64,000 bases of DNA from Firmicutes bacterium UBA4882 (GCA_002399265.1 DHDG01000039.1:33847-97846), one strand, 5' to 3'; shown: positions 46,870-64,000, counted from the first letter of the stretch. The notes: a model not told the origin generated them from the letters alone. Made by a program: numbers and translations.

Positions 46870-47294
46870 TCAATCACCCCGTCATCGGAGGGACCTTGAT
46901 CCACGCGGCGTACACCCAGCGCAGGTCTTTCTGCTCCTCCCTCCCTAATCAGGTCCAGAGCGGCCACCAGGTCTTCGTATGCCACTTTGCGATCCGGATA
47001 CAAGACTACTTGCATCTGCGGGTTATCGATCAATGATTGCGTAACCCGCGCGGAGACTTCCGCAGCAGGAATCCGCAGACCTTCGATGAAATATTGCCCC
47101 TCGGTATCAAGCGCCACAACCAATTGCTCAATCTCAGCGACCGGGGCAGTGCTTGAGTCTGGAAGAGAAACCGGAATGGAAGCTGCTCCATTATCAAAAG
47201 TACCATAGATCACGAAAAAGAAGACCAGCATTACCATTACATCGATCAGAGGTACAATGTCAACCCTGGCTTTACGCTTCCAGTATCGAGCCAT
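46866..47294 (-). CDS. exbD: Biopolymer transport protein ExbD/TolR
   Basis: The N-terminus IVPLIDVMVMLVFFF is typical, and the size matches. Confidence 0.85.
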   Translation of the reverse strand: MARYWKRKARVDIVPLIDVMVMLVFFFVIYGTFDNGAASIPVSLPDSSTAPVAEIEQLVVALDTEGQYFIEGLRIPAAEVSARVTQSLIDNPQMQVVLYPDRKVAYEDLVAALDLIREGGAERPALGVRRVDQGPSDDGVID

Positions 47295-47910
47295 GGTTAC
47301 CCCTCCGATCTTTTAACATTGCCGAGAAATCAATTGTCTCACGTTCCAGCATCTCGGCGACGGATTCAGCGCGATGCACAAAATAGTTCATGGCCACCAG
47401 TGTAGGAATCGCAATAATTAATCCTGATGCAGTAGTAATCAGCGCTTCAGCAATACCCAAGCCAACCGATTCCATCCTGGCCATCGCCGAGGCTGCGCCA
47501 AGCAAGCGGAAAGTATTGAGAATGCCAGTAACAGTACCCAACAGTCCCAGAAGGGGCGCTGCCGTTACGATTGTGTCCAGAATGGAGAGCCCCGAAAATA
47601 ACTTTTTTCTTTCCAGACTGGCGGCCGCTTGCATTTCAAGCTCAGCATTTTCAGGATTTGCCGCTGCCAGGCCATTTGATAAAACCCGCATTACTGGACC
47701 GTCCGAATCGTTAAACAGTAGAACCGCTTCATTGGTAGCACCGGCGGCAATCAGCTTCCGGGCTGCTCTGAGACGATCCGATAATCCATTTTCCGTTTTG
47801 CGCAGCCGGACAAAAAAGATGATCCTTTCTACTATCACCGCCAGAGCCGTGACAGAACACAGCAACAGAGGATACATAACGGGCCCGCCTTTGGAAATTA
47901 TTGTGAACAT
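47272..47910 (-). CDS. exbB: MotA/TolQ/ExbB proton-channel protein
   Basis: Three TM helices and the conserved C-terminal helix region are present. RBS AAGGAGGA lies 7 nt upstream. Confidence 0.85.
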   Translation of the reverse strand: MFTIISKGGPVMYPLLLCSVTALAVIVERIIFFVRLRKTENGLSDRLRAARKLIAAGATNEAVLLFNDSDGPVMRVLSNGLAAANPENAELEMQAAASLERKKLFSGLSILDTIVTAAPLLGLLGTVTGILNTFRLLGAASAMARMESVGLGIAEALITTASGLIIAIPTLVAMNYFVHRAESVAEMLERETIDFSAMLKDRRGNHGSILEA

Positions 47911-49461: not shown

Positions 49462-50763
49462 CTAACGGGCAATATCTTTGCGATAGACCATGCCGTCGAA
49501 ATGAACGTGTGCGAGGCCTTGATACGCCAAGTCAGCCGCCTGCGCCACGCCAGCGTCGGATTGCGCCACCACATTCAGAACTCTTCCGCCAGCGGTTACC
49601 AGACCATCAGGACTGTCGGCCGTGCCAGCGTGAAAGATCTGACACCCCAATGCTTCCGCTTCCGACAGGCCTGTGATAATTTTACCGCTTCGATACTTTC
49701 CCGGATAACCTTGGGACGCCGCAACCACACATACAGATGATCTATTTTCCCATTGCAGCGCTTTTCCTGCAAGCTTTTTCATGACAGCCGCCCATAAAAT
49801 TTCCGCCAGATCCGTCTGCAGCAGAGGCAGCAAGGCTTGTGTTTCTGGATCACCAAAACGAGCATTAAATTCGACAACTTTAGGTCCATCTCCTGTCAGC
49901 ATTAACCCGGCATAGAGCAGACCTGTGAACGGCCGTCCCATTTCCGCCAAGGTTTTCAGAACTGGATCAATAATTGAGTTCTTCACCAACTCTGCCAAAT
50001 TGTCCGGCGCATCAGCAACTGGGGCAAACGCGCCCATCCCTCCGGTATTGGCACCGGTATTCCCTTCGCCAATTGCTTTATGATCACGTGCCGGAATCAT
50101 GATTACCGAATCAGTGCCACTGCAGACTGCAAAAACAGAAGCTTCTTTGCCTGCCATAAACTCTTCAATTAAGACACAGTTATCCCCGGAAGATTGTGCC
50201 TTGGACGATTGCAGCCCGCCAGGATGCTCTTCGCAACATTGTGGCAAGAATTCGCAGATGGTCTCCTCAGCTTCGCTTAGGCTATGACAGATCCGCACCC
50301 CTTTTCCGGCAGCCAAGTTGTTCATCTTAAGCACTACAGGAAAATTGGCCGAAGAAAGGGAGCGCAAACCCGTTTTTCTATCGTGAACCTCCTGATAAGT
50401 GGCAGTCGGCACTTTCGCCTTGCGCATTACCTGCTTGGCGAAGACTTTACTGGTCTCGATTTCAGCGGCGGCTGCGGATGGACCAAAGGCAGGAATACCA
50501 GCTCTGGTGAGCATGTCAGACAGACCGGCCGCCAAATATATTTCCGGACCGATTACAACTAAATCGGGCCGTGCATTGACAGCCCAATCATAGATCGCGC
50601 CGGCACTCAAGTCACCAGGCCGAACATTTTCGGCGTATCTGGCTGTCCCGGGATTGCCCGGTGCGCAATATAGCTTTTTTACCAATGGACTGCGGGATAA
50701 CTTCCAACAGAGAGCATCCTCTCTGGCTCCGCTTCCGACAATTAGAATTTTCATTGTGCTCAT
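49462..50763 (-). CDS. purD: Phosphoribosylamine-glycine ligase
   Basis: The ATP-grasp motifs are present, with full-length PurD similarity. Confidence 0.9.
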
Positions 50764-50832
50764 GCTATGCTACCTCCTGCTGATGGGCAATCATGCTGCC
50801 CGGTAATATCACGCCCGTCTCTCCAGTAATCT

Positions 50833-52476
<1,644 letters not shown>

Positions 52477-52501
52477 GTGATGTCCCTCCTAATCCATCTC
52501 C

Positions 52502-53107
52502 CTAATCCAAGATGCGCACTTTACGGCCTTCAATTTGCAGCCGTCCTTGCGCAAACAGACTGACTGCCAAAGGAAACAGTCGGTGTTCGACCTGCAGCAC
52601 CCGGGCAGCCAGATTATCCTCGTCATCATCTGGAAGAACCGGAACCGCCTCCTGCAAAATAACCGGACCGCTGTCGATTCCGCCATCCACAAAGTGCACA
52701 GTACACCCGCTAATCTTGGCACCGTAGCGCAGTACATCCCGATGCGGATGGGCACCGGGAAACGCAGGCAGCAAAGCAGGATGAATGTTCATGATTTTTC
52801 CCTGATAGCGCTCCAGAAAATGTCCTCTCAACAAATACATAAAACCCGCCGTCAAGACCAGATCCGGATTGTAAGGCGCGATCAGTTCCGCCATGGCATC
52901 ACCATATAAGTCCGGATTGGAATCCGGCTTTCTGGATATTATCGCGACCGGAATATTGTTTTCTTTGGCATACAATAGGCCCGGAACTTCTGGAGCACTA
53001 CTAACAACGGCCACGATGCTGCCGTCGATTTGCCCCGCTGCAATGGCGTCGATAATCGCTTTCAGGTTGCTGCCTCTGCCTGATATCAAGACTACTATGC
53101 GAATCAA
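52502..53107 (-). CDS. purN: Phosphoribosylglycinamide formyltransferase
   Basis: The N-terminus MIRIVVLISGRGSNL and the formyltransferase His/Asp motifs are present. Confidence 0.9.
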   Translation of the reverse strand: MIRIVVLISGRGSNLKAIIDAIAAGQIDGSIVAVVSSAPEVPGLLYAKENNIPVAIISRKPDSNPDLYGDAMAELIAPYNPDLVLTAGFMYLLRGHFLERYQGKIMNIHPALLPAFPGAHPHRDVLRYGAKISGCTVHFVDGGIDSGPVILQEAVPVLPDDDEDNLAARVLQVEHRLFPLAVSLFAQGRLQIEGRKVRILD

Positions 53108-53111
53108 ACAA

Positions 53112-54134
53112 TCACTTCCTATAGGTCACTCCCGGAAGATCGGTAATCTCACCGACTACCCAGGCGTTGATTCCCGCTTCTGCCAGGAATGAGACCGCCT
53201 TCACGGCCTGTTTCTCCGGCACAACAGCGACCATTCCCAGACCCATATTAAATGTGCGGAACATTTCCGCCTCGTCTACGCCAGCGGTATTAGCCAAAAA
53301 TCCGAAAATTGGGGGTACTGGCCAAGAGGACAAATTAAAGACCGCCCCGTTACCCTCCGGCAGAATTCTGGGCACATTTTCGGTTAGGCCGCCGCCGGTA
53401 ATATGAGCCAATCCGCGAACCTCCACCTCTTTGATCAGACCCAAAACAGGTTTGACATAAATCTGAGTCGGCGTAAGCAGTACTTCTCCCAGAGGTTTAC
53501 GGAAACCAGCGACATAGTCCTCATAGGACAGCCGATGGTCTTTCATGATCTTGCGTACCAATGAAAAGCCATTACTATGTACACCGGTGGAAGCCATACC
53601 GATTATGGCGTCCCCTTTTTGGATAGAACGGCCGTCAATGATCTGATCATGTTCCACCACGCCGACAGAAAAGCCAGCAATGTCGCATGAGCCAGCCTCC
53701 ATATGACCGGGGTGTTCGGCAGTCTCTCCGCCAATCAGCGAACAGCCTGCCTGACGGCAACCTTCCGCCACGCCCGCGATCACGGCCGCCCCAACATTGA
53801 CGTCCAGTTTGCCGGTCACGAAATAGTCCAGAAAGAAGAGCGGTTCCGCTCCCACCACCACCAAGTCATTGACACACATTGCTACCGCGTCTATACCAAT
53901 CGTATCATGCTTATCCATAAACTGGGATATCATTACTTTAGTGCCGGCACCGTCTGTTGAGGAAACCAGCACCGGGCGCCGATAACCGCCAGGTAGGTCA
54001 CACAAAGCTCCAAAGCCGCCAATGCTGGAGAGTACTTCTGGCCTGCGGGTTGAGGCGGTGTAAGGCGCGATTCTGCGCACAAATTCATTTCCGGCATCAA
54101 TGTTGACACCTGAATCCCGGTAAGTTAAAGACAT
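53112..54134 (-). CDS. purM: Phosphoribosylformylglycinamidine cyclo-ligase (AIR synthetase)
   Basis: A PurM-like N-domain and C-domain are present. The gene overlaps the purF stop by 10 nt. Confidence 0.9.
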   Translation of the reverse strand: MSLTYRDSGVNIDAGNEFVRRIAPYTASTRRPEVLSSIGGFGALCDLPGGYRRPVLVSSTDGAGTKVMISQFMDKHDTIGIDAVAMCVNDLVVVGAEPLFFLDYFVTGKLDVNVGAAVIAGVAEGCRQAGCSLIGGETAEHPGHMEAGSCDIAGFSVGVVEHDQIIDGRSIQKGDAIIGMASTGVHSNGFSLVRKIMKDHRLSYEDYVAGFRKPLGEVLLTPTQIYVKPVLGLIKEVEVRGLAHITGGGLTENVPRILPEGNGAVFNLSSWPVPPIFGFLANTAGVDEAEMFRTFNMGLGMVAVVPEKQAVKAVSFLAEAGINAWVVGEITDLPGVTYRK

Positions 54135-55612
54135 GCTTGCTCCTCCTCCAGAATGTGCTTGCTTCCGCAGTCGCAGCCCCGCGGTATGCCAAATGGATAT
54201 TCTCCGTTAAAGCAGGCTAGACAAAGTCCGTCCGGCAGACCGATCGATTGCTGCAAGCCTTCAATCGTCTGGAAATGCAGTGAATCTGCACCAATAGAGC
54301 GGCGCATCTCATCCACCGAACAAGTAGCGGCAATCAGTTCACGGCTAGCCGAAATATCAATTCCGTAAAAGCAAGGGTATTTAAGGGGCGGTGAACTGAT
54401 AAACATGTGCACCTCTTTTGCTCCAGCCTCATGCAACATTTTGACCAAGAGCTTACTGGTCGTGCCTCTGACAATCGAATCGTCGATGATGACAATCCGT
54501 TTGCCTCTTAAGATCTGGCTGATCGGATGCAGCTTCAGGTTAACCCCCATGTTGCGCTCCGCCTGAAGCGGCCTAATAAAGGTTCTTCCCACATAACGAT
54601 TCACTACCAGCGCGGTATCAAGCGGTAATCCCGATTGTTCGGCGTACCCGATCGCTGTGGAAAAACCGCTCTCTGGAACTGGTACTACCAAATCGGCGTC
54701 AATCTCACTGACCCGCGCTAGTTGGCGTCCCATTTCCTTCCTGGTTTCGTGAACCAGTCGTCCCTCAATGACACTGTCCGCTCTGGAAAAATAGACGAAC
54801 TCCATAGCGCACAGAGCCCGTTTAGTCGGTGGCAACACGCGCTGCGAGCGTATACCATCCGGAGACAAAATCACCATTTCCCCGGGGTCGATATCACGCA
54901 AGACTTCTCCACCAATAGAACTGATCGCGCTCGATTCAGAAGCCACGACATAGCCTTCCGGCACGATCCCGAGGGACAGGGGGCGATTGCCGCCACCGTC
55001 CCTGACAGCGTAAACAGTATTACCGTGCAGAACGACCAGCGAAAAACTACCTTTTAATTTGGACACCGTTTTGCGGATCGCTGATTCGATCGATTCCGTA
55101 CTATATCTGGCAATTAAATTTAAGATTACTTCTGTGTCAGAAGTAGTTTGAAATACTGAACCGCCCTGCGCCAGTTCGTCGCAGAGGGCGGCAGTATTGA
55201 TCAAATTCCCATTATGAGCGACCGCCAGCATGCCCTTCAGACAACGTGCCACGATCGGCTGTGCGTTCACTACTGAGCTGGTGCCGGTCGTTGAGTAACG
55301 CACATGCCCGATTGCTGAGGTTCCAATCAAACCGTCGATAATCGTTTCGTCAAAGACATGCCGGACCATGCCCATGTTTTTATGACAGATCATTTTATGA
55401 CCGTCCGACACGGTGATTCCGGCACTCTCTTGACCGCGGTGCTGCAGTGCATATAACCCCATATAAGACATGCGCGCTGCAGCGCAACCTGAACGCCCGG
55501 CCACCCCAAACACGCCGCATTCCTCGTGCAGACGATCCTCAAAGATGTCTTCTGAGCCTTCCACTGCGCCTGCTATTGGGCCTTCATGCAGTTGGCAATA
55601 CTGTTTTTCCAT
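54125..55612 (-). CDS. purF: Amidophosphoribosyltransferase (with ~30-aa propeptide before the catalytic Cys)
   Basis: The motif ECGVFGV, a PRTase motif, and [4Fe-4S] Cys residues are present. The ATG at 55612 overlaps the purL 3' end by 40 nt. Confidence 0.9.
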
Positions 55613-58572
55613 CTCTGCTCCATCTCCCTTACGGGTACGTCGACACAGGGGGACGGTTCTTCTGTGCTATTTTGATCGCAACAACAAGAGCAAGCGTACT
55701 TTCCCTGTTTAGCTGGCTCGATTGTGATTTGCAGATTCATACCGCCCACTGTTCCCAGTTTAGTAGCACTAATGCCATAATGTCCGGCAAGCTCCACGAT
55801 TGCCGCCGACGACTCCGCCGGAGCTGAGATCAAAATCCGGCTTTGGCTCTCACCGAATAACAGCGCATCGGGCCTGATCAAATTGGAATTAGAATCGGTA
55901 GCCGGCAGGCGCAGTGTGGCACCTTTACCGCCGGCAATACAGCATTCTGCGGCTGCAACCGCCAGACCACCCTCGCTGAGATCATGCGCCGAAACAATGA
56001 GGCTCCGGTCAATGAGCTCCAGAATCAGACTAATCAGCTGCTTCTCTTTCTTAAGATCAAGTTCTGGAACTCGGCCAGCAACCGTTTGGGCACAGACCTT
56101 CAAATACTCGCTGCCGCCAAGCTCTTCCCTGGTCTCGCCCAGCAGAATGACACTGTGGTCCTCTACTTTAAAGGCCATGTCGCATCTTTTGCTAATGTCG
56201 TTTATGAGCCCGAGCATGCCAATAATCGGCGACGGGTAGATCGGCTGGCCGTTGGTTTCGTTGTAAAAACTAACATTACCGCCGATCACCGGCGTTTCAA
56301 GTTCTCGGCAAGCGTCGGCAATCCCGTCAACCCCTCTGGCGAATTGCCAATAAACATCGGGCTTCTCCGGATTACCGTAGTTCAGCCCATCAGTGACTGC
56401 CACCGGTTTGGCACCTGTGCAAGCTACGTTCCGAGCGGCTTCCGCGACTGCAGCAGCTGCACCGGTATAGGGATCGAGATAGCAAAGACGCCCGTTACCA
56501 TCGATTGAAAACGCAATACCCTTTTGCGTATCTTTTACGCGCAAAACAGCAGCATCCGCACTGCCAGGGACGAGTACCGTATTATTTTGGATCATATGAT
56601 CGTATTGCCGATACACCCATTCTTTACTGGCTATGCCCGGAGACGCCAACAGCTTCAGCAGGCACGCATTAAAATCGGACGGCAAAGGGACTGCGTTCAT
56701 ATCATAGTTATTCAGCTCGTCAAGATAGGCGGGCTTTTCACATTCAGTAACGTACTTTGGAGCACCTTGCGTTGACAATGACCAGGCCGGTACTTCTGCC
56801 ACCACTTGGGGTCCTTCATAAAGTCGCAGCATGCCATCGTCGGTTACGGTGCCGACAATATTACAATCCAAACCCCAGCGCTCATAAATGGCGGTGACCG
56901 CTTCCTCGCAACCCGGCTTGGGCACGAGCAGCATCCGTTCCTGAGACTCCGAAAGCATCATTTCATAGGGTGTGATACCTTCTTCGCGGCGTGGCACTTT
57001 CAGCAAATCCATTTCAATGCCGGTATCGGCTCTGGCAGCCATTTCACAAGCTGAGCTGGTCAATCCGGCTGCTCCCATATCCTGAACCCCAACAAGCAAT
57101 TTTGCTTTGATTACTTCCAGAGTAGCTTCAATGAGCAGTTTCTCGGTAAAGGGGTCGCCAACCTGAACGGCGGGCCTTTTTTCTTCGGAGTTTTCATTGA
57201 GCTCACCAGAAGCAAAGCTGGCACCTAAAATGCCATCGCGTCCAGTATTGGCACCAGCCACCATTACAGCATTGCCGACGCCACTAGCGGAAGCGGTGAT
57301 AATATCGTCTGTTTTAGCCAATCCAACACACATCACGTTGACAAGAGGATTACCATAATAACAAGAATCAAACTGAATCTCGCCGCCAATAGTTGGCACG
57401 CCGACACAATTACCATATCCGGCGATGCCAGACACTACGCCCGAAAATAAGTAACGGGTGCGGTCATCCGTCAGTGGACTAAAGCGCAGCGAATTCAGAC
57501 AAGCAACCGGCCGGGCGCCCATAGTGAAGATATCGCGCAGAATGCCGCCAATGCCGGTAGCTGCTCCCTGATAAGGCTCGATCGCCGAAGGATGATTATG
57601 GCTTTCTACTTTCATCACGACCGCCATACCATCGCCAATGTCGATAATGCCGGCGTTTTCACCCGGTCCCTGCAGAATATGGGGGCCTTCTGTAGGAAAG
57701 CGCGAGAATAAAGCCCGGGAATGTTTGTAGGCACAATGTTCAGACCACAGAGCGGCGAACATACCTAATTCAGTAAGATTCGGTTCACGACCAAGCTGGC
57801 TGATGATTCTGTCGTATTCGGCAGAAGTAAGGCCAAGCTCAACTGCTTTTGCTCTCATGCTCATGCTGTCCACCTGCCGCTTCCTGATTAGTGACTTGAT
57901 GATCGACTTAAAAATGTAATTGCCGTCTTCAGAGCCGAGAATGCTTTCCCCGGCCCGCTCTGGATGCGGCATCAGTCCAAAAACGTTGCCGCTTTCATTA
58001 ACAATACCCGCGATATTGGCGACGGAACCATTTGGATTATGCTCGGGAAGCACCGTTCCATTAGAACCGCAATAGCTTAGAACAATACCGCCATAACCGC
58101 GCAAGCGCTCCAAGCCTGTCTCATCAATATAGAAATTGCCGTCCATGTGGGCAATGGGGATGCTCAAAACTTGATCAGGAGTACAGGTGTTCGTAAAAAT
58201 GGTTTCGTTATTTTCAACCTTTAAAAATGTATTATTGCAAATAAAACTGATTCCCTCATTGCGCCGCAGCGCGCCGGGGAGTAAGCCAGACTCCGTCAGA
58301 ATTTGAAAGCCGTTACAGATGCCAATCACTGGACCACCAGATTCCGCAAAACGTCGGACAGCTTCCATGATTGGGGAAAAACGGGCAATCGCGCCTGGAC
58401 GCAAATAATCGCCATAAGAAAAGCCTCCGGGCAGAACGATCGCATCGATATCATTGAACGCCTGCTCACCGTGCCAAATATATTCGGTCTCTTGCTGCAG
58501 CACATCTTCCAGCGCGTGACGGCAATCATCGTCGCAGTTCGATCCCGGGAAAACAACTATTCCAAAGCGCAT
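55573..58572 (-). CDS. purQL: Fused PurQ-PurL: N-terminal glutamine amidotransferase (aa 1-236) joined in-frame to FGAM synthase II (aa 237-999)
   Basis: The PurQ catalytic region (GICNGFQIL...HPER) is followed, with no stop, by a canonical PurL N-terminus [18 protein letters not shown]...[10 protein letters not shown]. An internal ATG at 57864 is preceded by AGGTGG 5 nt upstream. The PurL C-terminus matches the expected ...ELxRAWKxxIxxxLK ending. Confidence 0.85.
55642..55666. repeat. 25-nt repeat copy 2 (GACACAGGGGGACGGTTCTTCTGTG), inside the purL 3' coding region, 30 nt upstream of the purF ATG
   Basis: 24/25 identity with 60511..60535. It contains an imperfect inverted repeat. It encodes ...TEEPSPCVD... 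in PurL. Confidence 0.7.
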
Positions 58573-58573
58573 C

Positions 58574-58834
58574 TTAGTTCTGCACCTCCGTCAGAGTACA
58601 GCTGAAAGTCTCAATAACCGGGTTAGACAACACCCGCCGTGCAATTTCTTCTAATGTCTTTTGGGCCTCTTGTTGGGTTTTGGCATTGATGCTTAGCTCA
58701 AAATACCTTCCCGAACGAACATTAGCAGCACAATCGTAGCCCAGTTTGGCTAATGCACCTTCCACTGCCTTCCCCTGCGGATCAAGAATGCCTTCCTTCG
58801 GCAAAACCCGCACTACTCCCTTAAACATCGTCAA
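58574..58834 (-). CDS. purS: FGAM synthase PurS subunit
   Basis: An 86-aa PurS fold sequence ([19 protein letters not shown]). The gene ends 1 nt before the purQL start. Confidence 0.85.
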
Positions 58835-58863
58835 TCATCCTTTCAGCTGCAATTTTAATTATC

Positions 58864-60261
58864 CTAATTCCGATGATAGAGTTGTTCTTCCCAACAAGCG
58901 CAGACTGTTTCAGTCTTTTGAGACGCAATCCCAAGATAATCAAGCGGATTTTCCAGAGCATCACTGCCTCGTTTGCTGATGGTGCCCAGATACTTTGTCA
59001 AAGTCGGCTCCTGTTGGACGATCTCTTTTAGGGATTGGCCTTTTTGATCAGCTTCCAGTGTCATTTTTCGGACGGCTTCATGGGCATTGGGATGACCGGC
59101 GGCCGCCAAGCAAATATAGAGCGGTTCTGCGACAAAGCGTTCGGAAGATTGCTGCGCATTGGCGCGCATCTGGTCAGAATCGACCGTCATTTTCCGGAGC
59201 ACCCGCGTGGTGCGGTCCAGTGCCAAAATGAATCCAGTGACCAGCTCAGGCGCAAACCGGCCGGAAGCCGAATTGGTTAGATCACGCTGATGTTCCGAAA
59301 TTTGATCCATGTAAGCCGTCATGATGCGTGGGGCAAAGCTTTTCCAGAGACTTTTGATATGTTCGAAATTCCAGGGATTTCTCTTATGGGGCATGGTCGA
59401 AGATCCAACTTGCGTAGCAGAAAAGGCCTCGCTGATCTCAGCAATTTCGCTGCGCTGCAGATTACGGAAATCATCCGCTAAATTGGCCAGCACGCCAAAA
59501 GCAGAGACAATGCCATGCAGGTAGTCGAGCAAAAACTCGGGCGCCACAATTTGCGTACTATGCGTGGCTGGCTGCAGGCCAAGTTTTGCCAGGACATTCT
59601 TTTCGAATGCCTCAGGATTATCAATAATGAGCGCGGAAGCGTTATAAGCGCCTACCGCTCCGGCCATTTTTCCTTTCAGCTGTGCAACACCATGATCCAA
59701 ATAAGTAATGCGTTCGCCGAGCCTGGCAACGTATTCCGCAACAGCAAAGCCAAACGTGATGGGTACAGCGTGTTGTCCATGGGTTCTTCCAATTTGAACT
59801 GTGTCTTTTTCGCGTCTGGCCAAGTCGATGAGCTCTTGCTCCAATGCCAGCAACATAGGCCGCAGCAGCTCATGGTAAGCGTCGCGGAACCGCAGTGCAT
59901 TCGCCGTATCCAGAATGTCGACAGAAGTGGCTGTTAAGTGAATATATGGTCGGACGGACTCACTGACCCGCTGGGCAATACAATTCGTCAGAGCCCTGAT
60001 ATTATGATGCGTTCTTTCTTCTTCCTGGTAGACAGCGTCGGGATTAATCGCTGCACAAGCCTTCTCGATTTCGGCAGCAGTTCCGATTGGACAAATACCT
60101 GCTTCTTCTAACCCCTGCGCCAAGGCTGTTTCCACCCGGAGCTGGTAGTGGACGGCTGCATTTTCACTGAAGTAGCTGGACACCTTGTCCATTAACTCTT
60201 GGTTGGATTTATAGTAGCGGTGATCTAGAGGACTGATCTGATCAAATATGTCTCGTTTCAT
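58864..60261 (-). CDS. purB: Adenylosuccinate lyase
   Basis: The fumarate-lyase signature GSSTMPHKRNP is present, with full-length similarity. RBS GGGGAGG lies 7 nt upstream. Confidence 0.9.
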   Translation of the reverse strand: MKRDIFDQISPLDHRYYKSNQELMDKVSSYFSENAAVHYQLRVETALAQGLEEAGICPIGTAAEIEKACAAINPDAVYQEEERTHHNIRALTNCIAQRVSESVRPYIHLTATSVDILDTANALRFRDAYHELLRPMLLALEQELIDLARREKDTVQIGRTHGQHAVPITFGFAVAEYVARLGERITYLDHGVAQLKGKMAGAVGAYNASALIIDNPEAFEKNVLAKLGLQPATHSTQIVAPEFLLDYLHGIVSAFGVLANLADDFRNLQRSEIAEISEAFSATQVGSSTMPHKRNPWNFEHIKSLWKSFAPRIMTAYMDQISEHQRDLTNSASGRFAPELVTGFILALDRTTRVLRKMTVDSDQMRANAQQSSERFVAEPLYICLAAAGHPNAHEAVRKMTLEADQKGQSLKEIVQQEPTLTKYLGTISKRGSDALENPLDYLGIASQKTETVCACWEEQLYHRN

Positions 60262-60330
60262 TTGCGAACCTCCCCGCCTATTTTCCTATTCTCAATATGC
60301 TCCAAAAATCGGTGATTCAGCAAACGCTTT

Positions 60331-60369
60331 CAAAAAAATAAGCAGACAGAACCGGATAATTCTGTCCGC
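60331..60369 (-). terminator. Intrinsic terminator-like hairpin in the purB 5' leader (between promoter and RBS): candidate attenuator
   Basis: On the minus strand, a 10-bp stem gcggacagaa/uucugucugc with an 8-nt loop is followed by UUAUUUUUUUG. It lies ~40 nt downstream of the predicted +1. Confidence 0.5.
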
Positions 60370-60413
60370 CGGAGTCTATCACTTCGTGGCGTAGCGCGTG
60401 GCGTGACACCTAA

Positions 60414-60442
60414 ATTGTACAAGTACTGTTGTCGGTTGTCAA
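60414..60442 (-). promoter_or_regulatory. Sigma-A promoter upstream of purB (TTGACA-17-TACAAT)
   Basis: A perfect -35 and a near-perfect -10 with a 17-nt spacer on the minus strand. Confidence 0.6.
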
Positions 60443-60510
60443 TACAAGTTGTGTGACTTTTTTGTTAGGCGGGCAAAAATAGGATTTGGCGTCACAATAT
60501 TCTGACATTT

Positions 60511-60535
60511 GACACAGGGGGACGGTTCTCCTGTG
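60511..60535. repeat. 25-nt repeat copy 1 (GACACAGGGGGACGGTTCTCCTGTG) forming an 8-bp-stem hairpin, immediately after the purE stop
   Basis: The perfect inverted arms GACACAGG/CCTGTGTC (60511-18 / 60530-37) flank an 11-nt loop. It is 24/25 identical to 55642..55666. Confidence 0.7.
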
Positions 60536-60538
60536 TCC

Positions 60539-61039
60539 CTAATAATTGCGCCAGCCATTTTGCTGGAGGCGGTTGTCTTTATCTAAAACCTGTTGTACCA
60601 TGCGTGCTTTGTATGCTTTCATTTTTTCGCGCAATGCTGCGTCGGACAGGCTTAGTATTTGCACGGCCAGAATCCCGGCGTTACGGGCAGCCCCCACTCC
60701 TACGCAGGCAACCGGTATTCCTGATGGCATCTGCACCATGGAAAGCAATGAATCAAGTCCACTAAGGCTCGCACCCAGAATCGGTACCGCAATGACCGGC
60801 AACGTTGTTTCGGAGGCAATTACGCCCGCCAAATGGGCTGCACCGCCAGCTCCAGCGATAATTGCACCGAAACCCTCTGCAGCGGCGGCTTTGGCAAATG
60901 CAGTTGTCTGATCCGGAGTCCGATGCGCCGATAAAATGCGCATACAATATTCGACCCCAAACTCCTCCAGCACCTCGCCGGCCGCTTTCATGATCCCTAA
61001 ATCGGAGTCGCTGCCCATCATGATGGCAACTTTCTGCAT
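60539..61039 (-). CDS. purE: N5-carboxyaminoimidazole ribonucleotide mutase PurE
   Basis: The N-terminus MQKVAIMMGSDSDL and the PurE fold are present. RBS GAGGAGG lies 8 nt upstream. Confidence 0.9.
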   Translation of the reverse strand: MQKVAIMMGSDSDLGIMKAAGEVLEEFGVEYCMRILSAHRTPDQTTAFAKAAAAEGFGAIIAGAGGAAHLAGVIASETTLPVIAVPILGASLSGLDSLLSMVQMPSGIPVACVGVGAARNAGILAVQILSLSDAALREKMKAYKARMVQQVLDKDNRLQQNGWRNY

Positions 61040-61217
61040 TTTGCCAGCCTCCTCGCATCTAGATTTTTATTAAGTCGTATATCTTAATTTTAGCGTTTTA
61101 AAGCATAGTAACTAGACGCATGGGACACAACCTGCTGCCCACTGCTCAGCCCAGCACTTGCACAATAATAGGAGCAACCACTTTTTGTCGCGGCCGCTCC
61201 ATCCGAATGAAAAGTAA

Positions 61218-62510
61218 TCAGGCTTCTGCCTGCTTCTGCACGTGTTCTTTTTCTTTGTTCTTGCCAGTCAGCTGGAAGAGCAGGTTCAGGATCACCCCAG
61301 CCAATGTGGCGAACGCCATGGAACTAACCTGAATAACGTTGCCGAAGGCGTGCGCATTCAGTTTGGCACCGCCAATACCAAGAGTCAGTACTACAGACGA
61401 CAAGAGCAGGTTATGCTTGTCCGTATAATCGACGCCGGAAGAAACCAGCATTCTGAGCCCGGAAGCAGCAATAATACCGAACAACGCCATGCAGATCCCG
61501 CCCATAACAGGTTGCGGAATAGAGGAAATAAAGGCTTCAAATTTCCCGAAAACCGAAAGCAGAATGGCCAATACCGCTGCTCCGCCAGTCACCCAGACGC
61601 TGTATACTTTGGTGATTGCCATTACGCCGATGTTTTCGCCGTAAGTAGTATTAGGTGGTCCGCCAACAAGTCCCGCAAAAGAGGTGGCCAATCCGTCGCC
61701 AAGCAGCGTACGGTGCAGCCCTGGATTGGCTGTGAAATCTCTTCCGGTAACGCCACTGAGCGTCAGAATATCTCCGATATGCTCTGCCATTGTTACCAGA
61801 GCTACGGGAGCGATTCCAGCAATCGCAGGCAGGCTAAATTCCGGAAGTGTGAACTTCGGCACAGAGAACCAGACTGCTCCTTCTATGATCTTCAAATCAA
61901 CCAGTCCGGTAAGCAATCCCGTAAAATAACCGGCAGCAATTCCAAACAGGATCGGAATAACCCCTAAAAAACCCTTGAAGAAAACCGAGGCAATAATCGT
62001 CACTGCCAGTGTCACCAGCGCGGTAAATACGCCAGGATTTGATAATGCCGCCGTATCACTGTTAAGGACAGCCATTGATATCGCAGTCGGCGCCAGACCC
62101 ATCCCGATGACAATGATTACAGAACCGACTAGCACCGGCGGGAAAAACTTTTTAATCCACCCGGTACCAATTAAAGAGATGATTGCAGAAGCAAGGACAT
62201 AAATCAGTCCGGCAGCGATTGTTCCGCCTAATGCAGCAGGTATGCCGTACTGTTCTTTAGCGGCAATAATCGGACCGATGAAAGCAAATGAAGAGCCAAG
62301 ATAAGCCGGCACTTTTCCTTTCGTGCACACGATAAAAATCAGTGTGCCGAAGCCACTGGTAAACAGTGCGACTGCAGGACTCAGTCCGGTTAAAAAGGGC
62401 ACCAGCACAGTGGCACCAAACATAGCCAAAAGGTGCTGCAGGCTTAAGGCGATCCACTTGTGTGGCGCAGGGCGCTCATGAACCTCAATGGTCTTCTGCG
62501 ATGATTTCAT
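61218..62510 (-). CDS. pyrP: Uracil permease (NCS2 family, UraA/PyrP)
   Basis: The N-terminal motif ERPAPHKWIALSLQHLLAMFGATVLVP matches UraA. The ATG at 62510 is preceded by GGGAGG 7 nt upstream. The gene lies directly downstream of pyrR. Confidence 0.85.
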   Translation of the reverse strand: MKSSQKTIEVHERPAPHKWIALSLQHLLAMFGATVLVPFLTGLSPAVALFTSGFGTLIFIVCTKGKVPAYLGSSFAFIGPIIAAKEQYGIPAALGGTIAAGLIYVLASAIISLIGTGWIKKFFPPVLVGSVIIVIGMGLAPTAISMAVLNSDTAALSNPGVFTALVTLAVTIIASVFFKGFLGVIPILFGIAAGYFTGLLTGLVDLKIIEGAVWFSVPKFTLPEFSLPAIAGIAPVALVTMAEHIGDILTLSGVTGRDFTANPGLHRTLLGDGLATSFAGLVGGPPNTTYGENIGVMAITKVYSVWVTGGAAVLAILLSVFGKFEAFISSIPQPVMGGICMALFGIIAASGLRMLVSSGVDYTDKHNLLLSSVVLTLGIGGAKLNAHAFGNVIQVSSMAFATLAGVILNLLFQLTGKNKEKEHVQKQAEA

Positions 62511-62554
62511 CTTGCTTCCTCCCAGCATTATTATGGTATTGTTAATAAAACCGG

Positions 62555-63127
<573 letters not shown>

Positions 63128-63143
63128 TCAACCGTCACCTCAC

Positions 63144-63230
63144 AAAAAAGCCTTCCCCGGCTGCCGCCGCAAGAAGGTTTAACTCAAACACAGAGTTTAC
63201 TCTCCTTGCCGACCTCACGGGATCGTACTT
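63144..63230 (-). promoter_or_regulatory. PyrR-dependent transcription attenuator in the pyrR leader (PyrR-binding loop GAUCCCGUGAGGUC + terminator hairpin)
   Basis: On the minus strand, a motif matching the PyrR binding-loop consensus (UCC-G-GAGG) is followed by the stem ccuuc...gaagg plus CUUUUUUG, directly before the pyrR RBS. Confidence 0.6.
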
Positions 63231-63254
63231 AAAGGATTTGCGCTACACACTCTT

Positions 63255-63283
63255 ATTAAACATTAGGCAGATCATAAAGTCAA
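63255..63283 (-). promoter_or_regulatory. Sigma-A promoter for the pyrR operon (TTGACT-17-TTTAAT)
   Basis: Hexamers with a 17-nt spacer lie upstream of the attenuator. Confidence 0.5.
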
Positions 63284-63330
63284 CATTTTTATGGGCTCTC
63301 CAGGCCTTCCGGGCCCCCCTGATGTTCCTG

Positions 63331-63918
63331 TTACAGGCCTTCGCTATGCTCGCGGCCTTCTTGGCGCGCGGTGACCGGCCCGAATTCAGACAGAGGCCAC
63401 AGACGCCAAACCACCCGGCCCTGCATCTGCACCCGCGGAACAGAACCAATCGCCGGATCCCTGCTGTCCAAACTATGATCACGATTATCGCCCATCAGGA
63501 AATAACGGTCGGTAGGAACCAGCAACGGCTCAAGATTAGTCCAAGGTCCCATTATGCCATTAATATAGCTCTCCTGTTGCACAAGGCCGTTCACAGACAG
63601 CGTGCCACTGACAATCGCGATCTGGTCTCCCGGAAGTGCCACAACCCTTTTGATGAGAATCCCTTCTGCTGCAGCGCAGGTAAATCCGTATATTTCCCCT
63701 GGCTCAGGCTGATGCCAGATTCCGGACAGTTTTTCCGTGACCACAATGTCCCCGTCTGCCAGAGTCGGACGCATGGAATCGCCGGAGATGACAATAATTC
63801 TTCCGATAAAAAGTATGAAAACGCTGGCTACCACGGAGGCCAGCGCCAGCCATTCCAGCCATTCGCGCAAAAATGTTTTTTTCACAGCCAGACCACTCAA
63901 GACTGCCAGCCCCCTCAA
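63331..63918 (-). CDS. lepB: Signal peptidase I
   Basis: The SPase I boxes are present (GDSMRPTL, GDNRDHSLDSR). The start codon is uncertain: the TTG at 63918 and the GTG at 63885 both lack a good SD. Confidence 0.8.
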   Translation of the reverse strand: MRGLAVLSGLAVKKTFLREWLEWLALASVVASVFILFIGRIIVISGDSMRPTLADGDIVVTEKLSGIWHQPEPGEIYGFTCAAAEGILIKRVVALPGDQIAIVSGTLSVNGLVQQESYINGIMGPWTNLEPLLVPTDRYFLMGDNRDHSLDSRDPAIGSVPRVQMQGRVVWRLWPLSEFGPVTARQEGREHSEGL

Positions 63919-63927
63919 ACGAAAAGG

Positions 63928-63948
63928 AGGGCTGATTTAATCAGCCCT
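63928..63948 (-). other. Perfect 9-bp-stem hairpin (agggctgat-tta-atcagccct) overlapping the rplS stop codon, followed by a short U-run: leaky terminator or processing element between rplS and lepB
   Basis: A palindrome was read directly in the sequence. A weak U-tract (ccuuuucguuu) follows on the minus strand. Confidence 0.4.
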
Positions 63949-64000
63949 CTGAAACGTTGATGCCTTTACGGCGCTCAGTAATACGCGCAGCACGGCCGGA
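63941..64000 (-). CDS. rplS: 3' end of the ribosomal protein L19 gene (continues beyond the window)
   Basis: The minus-strand translation ...SGRAARITERRKGINVSEG* resembles the L19 C-terminus (GKAARIKERR). The rplS-lepB arrangement is common. Confidence 0.4.
   Translation of the reverse strand, partial: SGRAARITERRKGINVSEG

Follow-up and report, generated by a model that had tools for sequence, protein, structure and literature searches.

The leader of purB in the window (the whole stretch of 64,000 nucleotides of DNA that was analysed) is best explained as a fossil PRPP riboswitch that now acts as a ligand-blind attenuator, and we give this reading as a whole a probability of roughly 0.6. 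That the element descends from a PRPP riboswitch of the ykkC subtype 2b type and has lost its aptamer is very probable, given its homology with the leaders of related bacteria. For its present working, we lean slightly, on the basis of folding predictions, towards a strong promoter followed by a constitutive terminator, with the level of expression set by read-through. The element is not a new riboswitch class. The initial annotation had recognised the layout of an attenuator or riboswitch upstream of purB, which stands, and had raised the possibility of a short riboregulator, which does not, since the leader is what remains of the 3' part of a PRPP-type aptamer.

Results

The genes on the minus strand follow the order pyrR (63127-62555), a uracil/xanthine permease gene (62528-61218), purE (61039-60539), an intergenic region of 277 nt and purB (60261-58864, with its ATG at 60261), and the source lineage belongs to uncultured Bacillota known from fermentation and bioreactor metagenomes. 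The consensus promoter that the initial annotation had attributed to purB was found again as a predicted sigma-A/sigma-70-type site (60414-60442, minus strand), with TTGACA at 60442-60437, a 17-nt spacer and TACAAT at 60419-60414. This site matches the consensus at 11 of 12 positions and is the best of only six promoter-like sites in 9 kb, the other sites reaching 9/12. The same hexamers with the same spacing are present in the relatives L035, L031, L042 and L039, and the hexamers are thus kept, 17 nt apart, in five lineages. Transcription is predicted to start at about G60407 (range 60411-60407), within a discriminator and initial transcribed block, TTAGGTGTCAC (60403-60413, minus strand), that is itself part of a run of 24 positions invariant in three lineages. 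This block lies outside the aptamer, because L031 and L042 have a spacer of about 45 nt between the two. We also considered UUAGGUGUCACG as a mutated CUAGGGUUCCG core, which would have made the leader a miniaturised ykkC fold, and rejected it, as L031, L034 and L042 carry this block at the start of the transcript, followed by the spacer of about 45 nt and a separate full aptamer.

Just 5' of the -35 hexamer lies a conserved A-rich block with a TCACACAA box (TAACAAAAAAGTCACACAA; 60449-60467, minus strand), which could be a UP element or an operator. The TCACACAA box is identical in three lineages, and a box akin to it, AAAAAGTCGCACAA, is found in L039 (67% PurB identity). As a separate observation, boxes containing GTCAC stand on both sides of the purB promoter, AAAAAGTCACACAA at 60456-60449 (5' of the -35) and GGTGTCAC at 60407-60403 (about +1 to +5), and in L039 (1530-1600) both promoter-flanking boxes read GTCG, as AAAAAGTCGCACAA and CTGTCGAACAA, the second of which contains the PurBox-like core CGAAC. 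The change from GTCAC to GTCG in both boxes looks concerted and so suggests a common DNA-binding factor, as judged by eye in two clades only. We conjecture from these motifs that the boxes may be operators of a PRPP-responsive repressor, in which case the aptamer would become redundant. The box 5' of the -35 was compared by eye with the PurBox of B. subtilis-type PurR and agreed at only 8/13 positions in the window and 10/13 in L039, and its identity as a PurBox was left as a conjecture.

Downstream of the promoter, an intrinsic terminator hairpin, GGCGGACAGAAUU-AUCC-GGUUCUGUCUGCU (60341-60370, minus strand), starts 43 nt past the -10 and is followed by TATTTTTTT (60340-60332). The hairpin has 13 pairs, four of them G-U, and a 4-nt loop, and the U-tract UAUUUUUUU (60332-60340, minus strand) has U at eight of its first nine tail bases. 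An earlier description of this region as a hairpin plus tail at 60331-60369 was right about both elements and too short in its stem, given as 10 bp. The predicted dG is -17.2 kcal/mol and, like the quality of the U-tract, is on par with that of the relatives with canonical aptamers, which rules out a weakened terminator. The hairpin sequence occurs as a single copy in the window. Its 5' arm begins in the GGCGG of the aptamer 3' tail, and the terminator found behind the full-length aptamers of L031 and L042 is identical to that of the window. From this sequence correspondence, we take the purB-leader hairpin to be the former expression platform of a riboswitch.

The post-terminator 5' UTR of purB (60262-60331, minus strand) contains GCATATTGAG at 60300-60291, which is identical in 4/4 lineages, and the RBS GGAGG at 60273-60269. 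A stretch of 60 nt around GCATATTGAG is, by estimate, about 90% identical among the window, L031 and L042, against about 55% at four-fold sites. A promoter scan between the hairpin and purB returned no site at 9/12 or better, and a second promoter 3' of the terminator was discarded both on this ground and because hand-picked candidates are not conserved in L035. A cre/LacI-type operator, TTGAAAGCGTTTGCT (60333-60319, minus strand, overlapping the end of the U-tract), was also set aside as not significant and probably due to chance: the CcpA cre pattern WTGNAANCGNWNNCW has four matches in the window against 1.5 expected, with 6 of 100 shuffles reaching four, and the cre-like sequence has one mismatch in L031 and in L042 and is missing in L035.

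The initial annotation had judged the leader of about 40 nt to be too short for guanine, ZTP, PRPP or ppGpp aptamers and to match none of them, and had recognised no purine riboswitch before purE. Our searches agree with both statements. An Rfam scan of 60230-60560 at E<=10 with lax filters gave no match, RF00442 (guanidine-I) included; a scan of 55000-64000 gave nothing at E<=10 except a PyrR site elsewhere; and at the gathering score the whole window contains no riboswitch family, including the purine (guanine/adenine) and ZTP families.

The origin of the leader became apparent from orthologous leaders gathered through PurB homologues. Eight relatives with 58-67% PurB identity (L003, L004, L005, L006, L022, L026, L039 and L041) have a canonical ykkC-type aptamer and a terminator directly 5' of purB, the aptamer reading GUGCACCUAGGGUUCCG, P1a/P1b, GGUCCAAGUGGUGCAGGCGC, loop and GCGUUACACCCUAGAGGGAUAAAAACCCCGGCGG. 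These aptamers score 58-68 bits with RF00442, the only Rfam family that they match, and 109-113 bits with R1, a covariance model trained on the canonical aptamers of six purB leaders. They differ from the guanidine-I consensus by GGUCCAAGUG in place of GGUCCGAGAG, extra J2/3 nucleotides, a GGCGG tail and their purine-gene context, and they retain the G after P3 (the G96 equivalent) that separates PRPP from ppGpp aptamers. Because of this sequence signature and the purB context, the aptamers of the distant relatives are called PRPP-type ykkC subtype 2.

When R1 is applied to the window, it yields 8.6 bits (E 0.5-4) over model positions of about 58 to 106, with 49 positions (P1/P1a/P1b and the core) skipped, and aligns AGGUGUCAcgCCACGCGCUACGCCACGAAGUGAUAGA--CUCCGGCGGACA against aggCgccg..uaaggcGcuACACCgUAGAGGGAUAAAAaCCCgGGCGGAUA. 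As this match is limited to the 3' end of the aptamer, we read the 40-nt leader as an aptamer stub, GCGCUACGCCACGAAGUGAUAGACUCC (60371-60397, minus strand), joined to the conserved transcript start at 60413-60403. The stub, of about 27 nt, comprises the P2 3' strand, J2/3 and a P3 relic, and matches GCGCUAC-ACC-...-GAUA-...-CCGGCGG of the intact aptamers, base for base at the 3' end (alignment A1). Its J2/3 has changed from ACAC to ACGC and its P3 relic reads AGU-GAUAG-ACU, as against GGG-AUAAAAG-CCC in intact aptamers; the G after P3 is still there. Absent from the window are the ykkC fold of P1, P1a, P1b, P2 and P3 with its CUAGGGUUCCG and GGUCC(A/G)AG cores, the P0 helix, of which the 5' tail is gone and only the 3' tail GGCGG is left, and the binding-site nucleotides (ACAC in J2/3, and GGG/CCC with the AUAAAAG loop in P3). 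Present are a terminator platform that overlaps the 3' end of the aptamer and the link with de novo purine genes, the element standing directly 5' of purB-purS-purQL-purF-purM-purN-purH-purD.

The series of states between the canonical aptamers and the window comes from four close lineages, which are roughly equidistant and separated at species level (85-88% PurB identity, 46-58% at four-fold sites). They have the promoter and the terminator in common, the latter base for base, and differ in between, with 12, 62 or about 150 nt separating the conserved ends. In lineage i (L031, L034), a spacer of about 45 nt precedes a full-length aptamer in which CUAGGG has become CUGGGGG and P3 has collapsed (GAUUGGUAAACCCC). 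Lineage ii (L020, L042, L043) also has the spacer and a full-length aptamer, in which P1 is rich in wobble pairs, P2 cannot pair and P3 contains a mismatch (G-U/C-G vs CCC) whose base differs among strains. Lineage iii (L001, L021, L035-L037) retains the spacer, P2 and the P3 relic and has P1, P1a, P1b and the core deleted, and in lineage iv (the window, L029 and L044-L050) the spacer and all aptamer parts 5' of the P2 3' strand are deleted. Against the 109-113 bits of canonical aptamers, the R1 scores are 51 for L031, 26.5 for L042, 8.6 for the window and 6.1, which is noise, for L035. This graded passage at one locus from canonical to damaged to deleted, under a shared promoter and terminator, points to a PRPP riboswitch as the ancestor of the element. 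At least nine assemblies, namely the window and eight more from different samples, share one identical truncated leader, which is consequently real and fixed in the species, and no assembly artefact. Longer intergenic regions in L049 and L050 were considered as possible aptamers and turned out to be N runs at a REP-like palindrome. Given the likeness of the 5' block (AGGUGUC) to the P2 5' strand (AGGCGCC), a deletion between short repeats is plausible; the core of lineages iii and iv may have been lost once or twice.

The elements at L031:1486-1602 and L042:1244-1363 deserve mention on their own as full-length, non-canonical ykkC subtype-2 aptamers, with CUGGGGG or CUUGGGG for CUAGGG and with P2 and/or P3 damaged. 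Their 5' domain is about 90% identical by our own count, against about 55% at neutral sites. To judge from these sequences, they may be either PRPP aptamers in decay or a variant that has been re-tuned.

Of the 170 four-fold sites of purB, 36 (21%) agree across the four lineages. Across the same four, the terminator block CCGGCGGACAGAATTATCCGGTTCTGTCTGCTT is unchanged at every position (33/33), including the loop, and GTACTTGTACAATTTAGGTGTCAC is invariant at 24/24 in three, the fourth differing at four positions by our own count. Set against the 21% background, these values indicate that promoter and terminator have been maintained while the aptamer decays or vanishes, and the conservation in relatives for which the initial annotation had asked is there for promoter and hairpin alike, above the four-fold background. 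Part of the invariance of the terminator may go back to a stage at which the leader still contained an aptamer. The stub itself is about 79% identical between the window and L035 (own count, alignment A1), with 48% at four-fold sites.

In folding predictions, the terminator has a pairing probability of about 1.0 from any plausible start, and the best terminator-free fold lies at +10.2 kcal/mol. Until the 3' arm has been transcribed, the nascent RNA is predicted to pair its 5' end with the terminator 5' arm (UGUC-A-CGCC with GGCG-GACA, p of about 1), and this is the dominant fold. The helix, whose extended pairing is peculiar to the junction of the window, is the only competing nascent structure and has an estimated displacement barrier of about 4.2 kcal/mol. 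With a barrier this low, it should be no effective antiterminator, and a constitutive antiterminator formed by the 5' end was rejected for this reason and because the terminator is 10 kcal/mol more stable.

Discussion

Intact PRPP riboswitches are ON switches in which P3 is the antiterminator and P0, formed by the two aptamer tails, is part of the expression platform (PMC5912903, PMC6031431). A large share of the binding pocket is built by P3, whose loop docks into P1a; nucleotides of P1a help to recognise the ligand, and J2/3 C75-A76-C77 and the G96 after P3 are binding-site residues (PMC6031431). Because this pocket is missing, PRPP binding and PRPP-dependent antitermination are predicted to be lost in the window, and none of the computational tests run on its leader supports current ligand sensing. 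We propose that the ancestral leader consisted of a spacer, a PRPP aptamer (P0, P1, P1a, P1b, P2 and P3) and a terminator with its 5' arm in the aptamer 3' tail, and that PRPP would have held P3/P0 together and thereby blocked the terminator. A deletion would then have taken the spacer, the P0 5' strand, P1, P1a, P1b, the GGUCCAAG core and the P2 5' strand, leaving the window species with the promoter, the stub of about 27 nt and the complete terminator. As neither a sensor nor an effective competing fold is left, the terminator would form on essentially every transcript. The near-consensus promoter would fire strongly, most transcripts, including read-through from purE, would end at about 60332-60340, and a fixed minority would read through into purB-purD. 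Any purine-responsive control would act at initiation, for example via the boxes that flank the promoter. Stabilising selection on the dosage of the operon would explain why promoter and terminator are both invariant.

The weak point of this proposal is that an ON switch that has lost its sensor and kept its terminator should leave the nine-gene operon nearly silenced. It also speaks against an attenuator that purB is needed for AMP synthesis as well, yet sits behind a terminator that should be mostly closed. The read-through that the attenuator calls for is hypothetical, and the characterised relative, the purB element of Heliobacterium modesticaldum, allows no expression in vivo when its ligand is lacking (PMC5912903).

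In Bacillus subtilis, de novo purine genes are controlled at the promoter and at a leader terminator. The leader of the pur operon combines a guanine riboswitch, an OFF switch with an intact aptamer, with the PurR repressor acting at the promoter; the window differs from it in having no purine aptamer, and a PurR-type operator there is only a conjecture. The guanidine-I riboswitch (RF00442, ykkC-yxkD) has the same fold family as the aptamers of the relatives, which show the subtype-2 departures from it. The closest counterpart is the experimentally validated singlet PRPP ON switch of H. modesticaldum purB (ykkC subtype 2b; Sherlock et al., 2018, PMC5912903; structure in Knappenberger et al., 2018, PMC6031431), which precedes the same gene at the head of purine genes and shares with the relatives of the window the same succession of promoter, aptamer and terminator, with the terminator 5' arm overlapping the aptamer 3' tail. 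An association with de novo purine biosynthesis genes has been described for PRPP riboswitches (PMC5912903). Measured against them, the window has an orthologous terminator and 27-nt stub and, beyond the strands and core listed above that it is without, a mutated J2/3 and P3 loop and no detectable aptamer. As the defining aptamer features are absent, its element is not classed as a functional member, though kin by descent and by platform. Its nearest experimental analogue would be the aptamer-disrupting mutant M1, which gives the same terminated and full-length fractions at any PRPP level (PMC5912903). As is predicted for the window, the sensor is inactive there and the terminator intact, and by analogy PRPP-independent fractions are expected in the window too. 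The window differs from M1 in that its knockout is natural, arose by deletion and not by point mutation, is fixed in a species and belongs to a genus in which the aptamer has decayed in 4/4 lineages. A search of a limited body of literature for riboswitch remnants or aptamer loss found nothing relevant, which is a weak negative, as other cases may exist.

Several other readings of the same leader were weighed. The terminator might be regulated by a trans-acting protein or sRNA that recognises the hairpin, loop or stub and prevents termination as purine or PRPP levels demand, so that the sensor has changed on an old platform; we think this unlikely, though less so than the other alternatives. 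The conservation at the sequence level (33/33 in four lineages, with the 4-nt loop) extends to the stub and to the GCATATTGAG block of the UTR, and since a conserved loop, stub and UTR block exceed the needs of a plain terminator, a trans-acting partner could be involved. The operon is moreover intact and its expression required, and the decay of the aptamer in 4/4 lineages suggests that the sensor is dispensable and the terminator is not. Against this, conserved terminator stems are common even where no partner exists, neither a candidate factor nor a binding motif was found, the leader has no PyrR-type motif and is empty in Rfam scans, and the hairpin, as a single copy in the window, gives no regulon signal. 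We are also doubtful of the fuller version of this idea, in which, once the PRPP aptamer had become dispensable in this genus, protein or RNA input has taken over the terminator, a trans factor thus replacing the cis aptamer, and the lineages are snapshots of the decay of the sensor. A more radical possibility is that the locus serves mainly to make the short terminated RNA of about 70-80 nt (60407-60411 to about 60332), a riboswitch-derived sRNA acting in trans for which purB is incidental. Terminated riboswitch transcripts that act in trans are known, for example from the SAM riboswitches of Listeria, a strong promoter and a strong terminator would give an abundant, stable, hairpin-ended RNA, and the 5' block and hairpin are invariant. 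We consider this reading improbable nevertheless, as the middle of the RNA differs between lineages by large indels, with 12, 62 or about 150 nt between the conserved ends, unlike a conserved sRNA, and as the expression of purB-purD is left unexplained.

In the alternative that the initial annotation itself had named, the hexamers are unused and the hairpin does no more than terminate purE; purB would then be transcribed from an unrecognised downstream start. The hairpin right after the purE stop lacks a U-tract, which leaves purE with no convincing terminator of its own, and the purB-leader hairpin would stop purE transcripts too. It lies, however, about 170 nt beyond purE and 3' of a conserved 11/12 promoter, no promoter-like site of at least 9/12 follows between it and purB, and in the relatives it is orthologous to the terminator of the purB riboswitch, which leaves this alternative with very little credit. 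Least credible of all would be a leader of about 40 nt that is a new minimal cis aptamer or a working mini PRPP aptamer. The riboswitch layout, the three Watson-Crick pairs that the P3 relic can form (AGU/ACU) and the nascent pairing of the 5' end with the terminator 5' arm (UGUC-A-CGCC/GGCG-GACA) are in line with it. Opposed to it are the deletion of P1a, the altered P3 loop and the ACAC to ACGC change, all in parts with roles in the pocket (PMC6031431), together with the barrier of only about 4 kcal/mol from the alternative helix to the terminator and the lack of any Rfam match. In addition, the core-less L035 has an unrelated middle of 62 nt, so that nothing conserved is left for a pocket.

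If the fossil riboswitch with ligand-blind attenuation is the correct reading, it has consequences for how such leaders are viewed. Riboswitches are usually catalogued as present or absent, and the series in this genus shows the natural decay of an ON riboswitch. The order of decay is unexpected, as the sensor was lost first while terminator and promoter are under strong purifying selection before an intact nine-gene operon. Should the terminator be a fixed attenuator, the locus shows that an expression platform can persist after its aptamer is gone and serve to set dosage; should expression still be regulated, something else has taken the place of the aptamer. As a warning, an orphan leader made of a promoter plus a terminator may be a fossil and not a new class. 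For structure-function studies of the PRPP aptamer, the series also provides naturally occurring loss-of-function variants.

Further observations at the locus

Behind the terminator, purB, purS, purQ-purL, purF, purM, purN, purH and purD (49462-60261, minus strand) all have intact reading frames. purF, purM, purN, purH and purD have NCBIfam matches above cutoff, and the best NCBIfam match of purB, TIGR00928, reaches 292.9 bits, under its cutoff of 326. In L020 (244-290) and L042 (1501-1545), purB begins with a tandem 9-nt repeat (ATGCGCGAC x3), giving MKRDMRDMRDMRD and a protein of 475 aa vs 465 aa. In the window, purQ and purL form one frame of 999 aa (ORF 58572-55573, junction at about 57888, minus strand), because two bases are absent (CACTAGAATCAGG is CACTAATCAGG), and in L029, L044 and L045, of the same species, purQ (237 aa) and purL (763 aa) are separate and overlapping. 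The fusion is either real and strain-specific, with the glutaminase N-terminal, or a sequencing error.

Directly after the purE stop codon lies a 27-nt palindromic REP-like element, GACACAGGGGGACGGTTCTCCTGTGTC (60511-60537), and a second copy with three mismatches is found in the 3' end of the purQ-purL frame (55642-55668). Other strains of the window species have two inverted copies after purE (L029:2179-2252), where the window has one, and two public assemblies have N runs exactly at this palindrome. Weak Rfam 'MIR5998' matches on the element reflect the long palindrome only.

Upstream of the purine genes, a PyrR-binding-site attenuator (63143-63239, minus strand) lies 5' of pyrR and the permease gene, with its own terminator and a full-length match. 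Its score of 48.4 bits is under the Rfam gathering score of 54 (E=2e-4), and it is probably genuine. purE follows downstream of this pyr unit, past a weak terminator-like hairpin at 61200-61171. Finally, a gene for a TolQ/ExbB-family protein (47272-47910, minus strand) lies close to the pur operon, which hints at a diderm Bacillota lineage; public records carry the label Bacillota bacterium.
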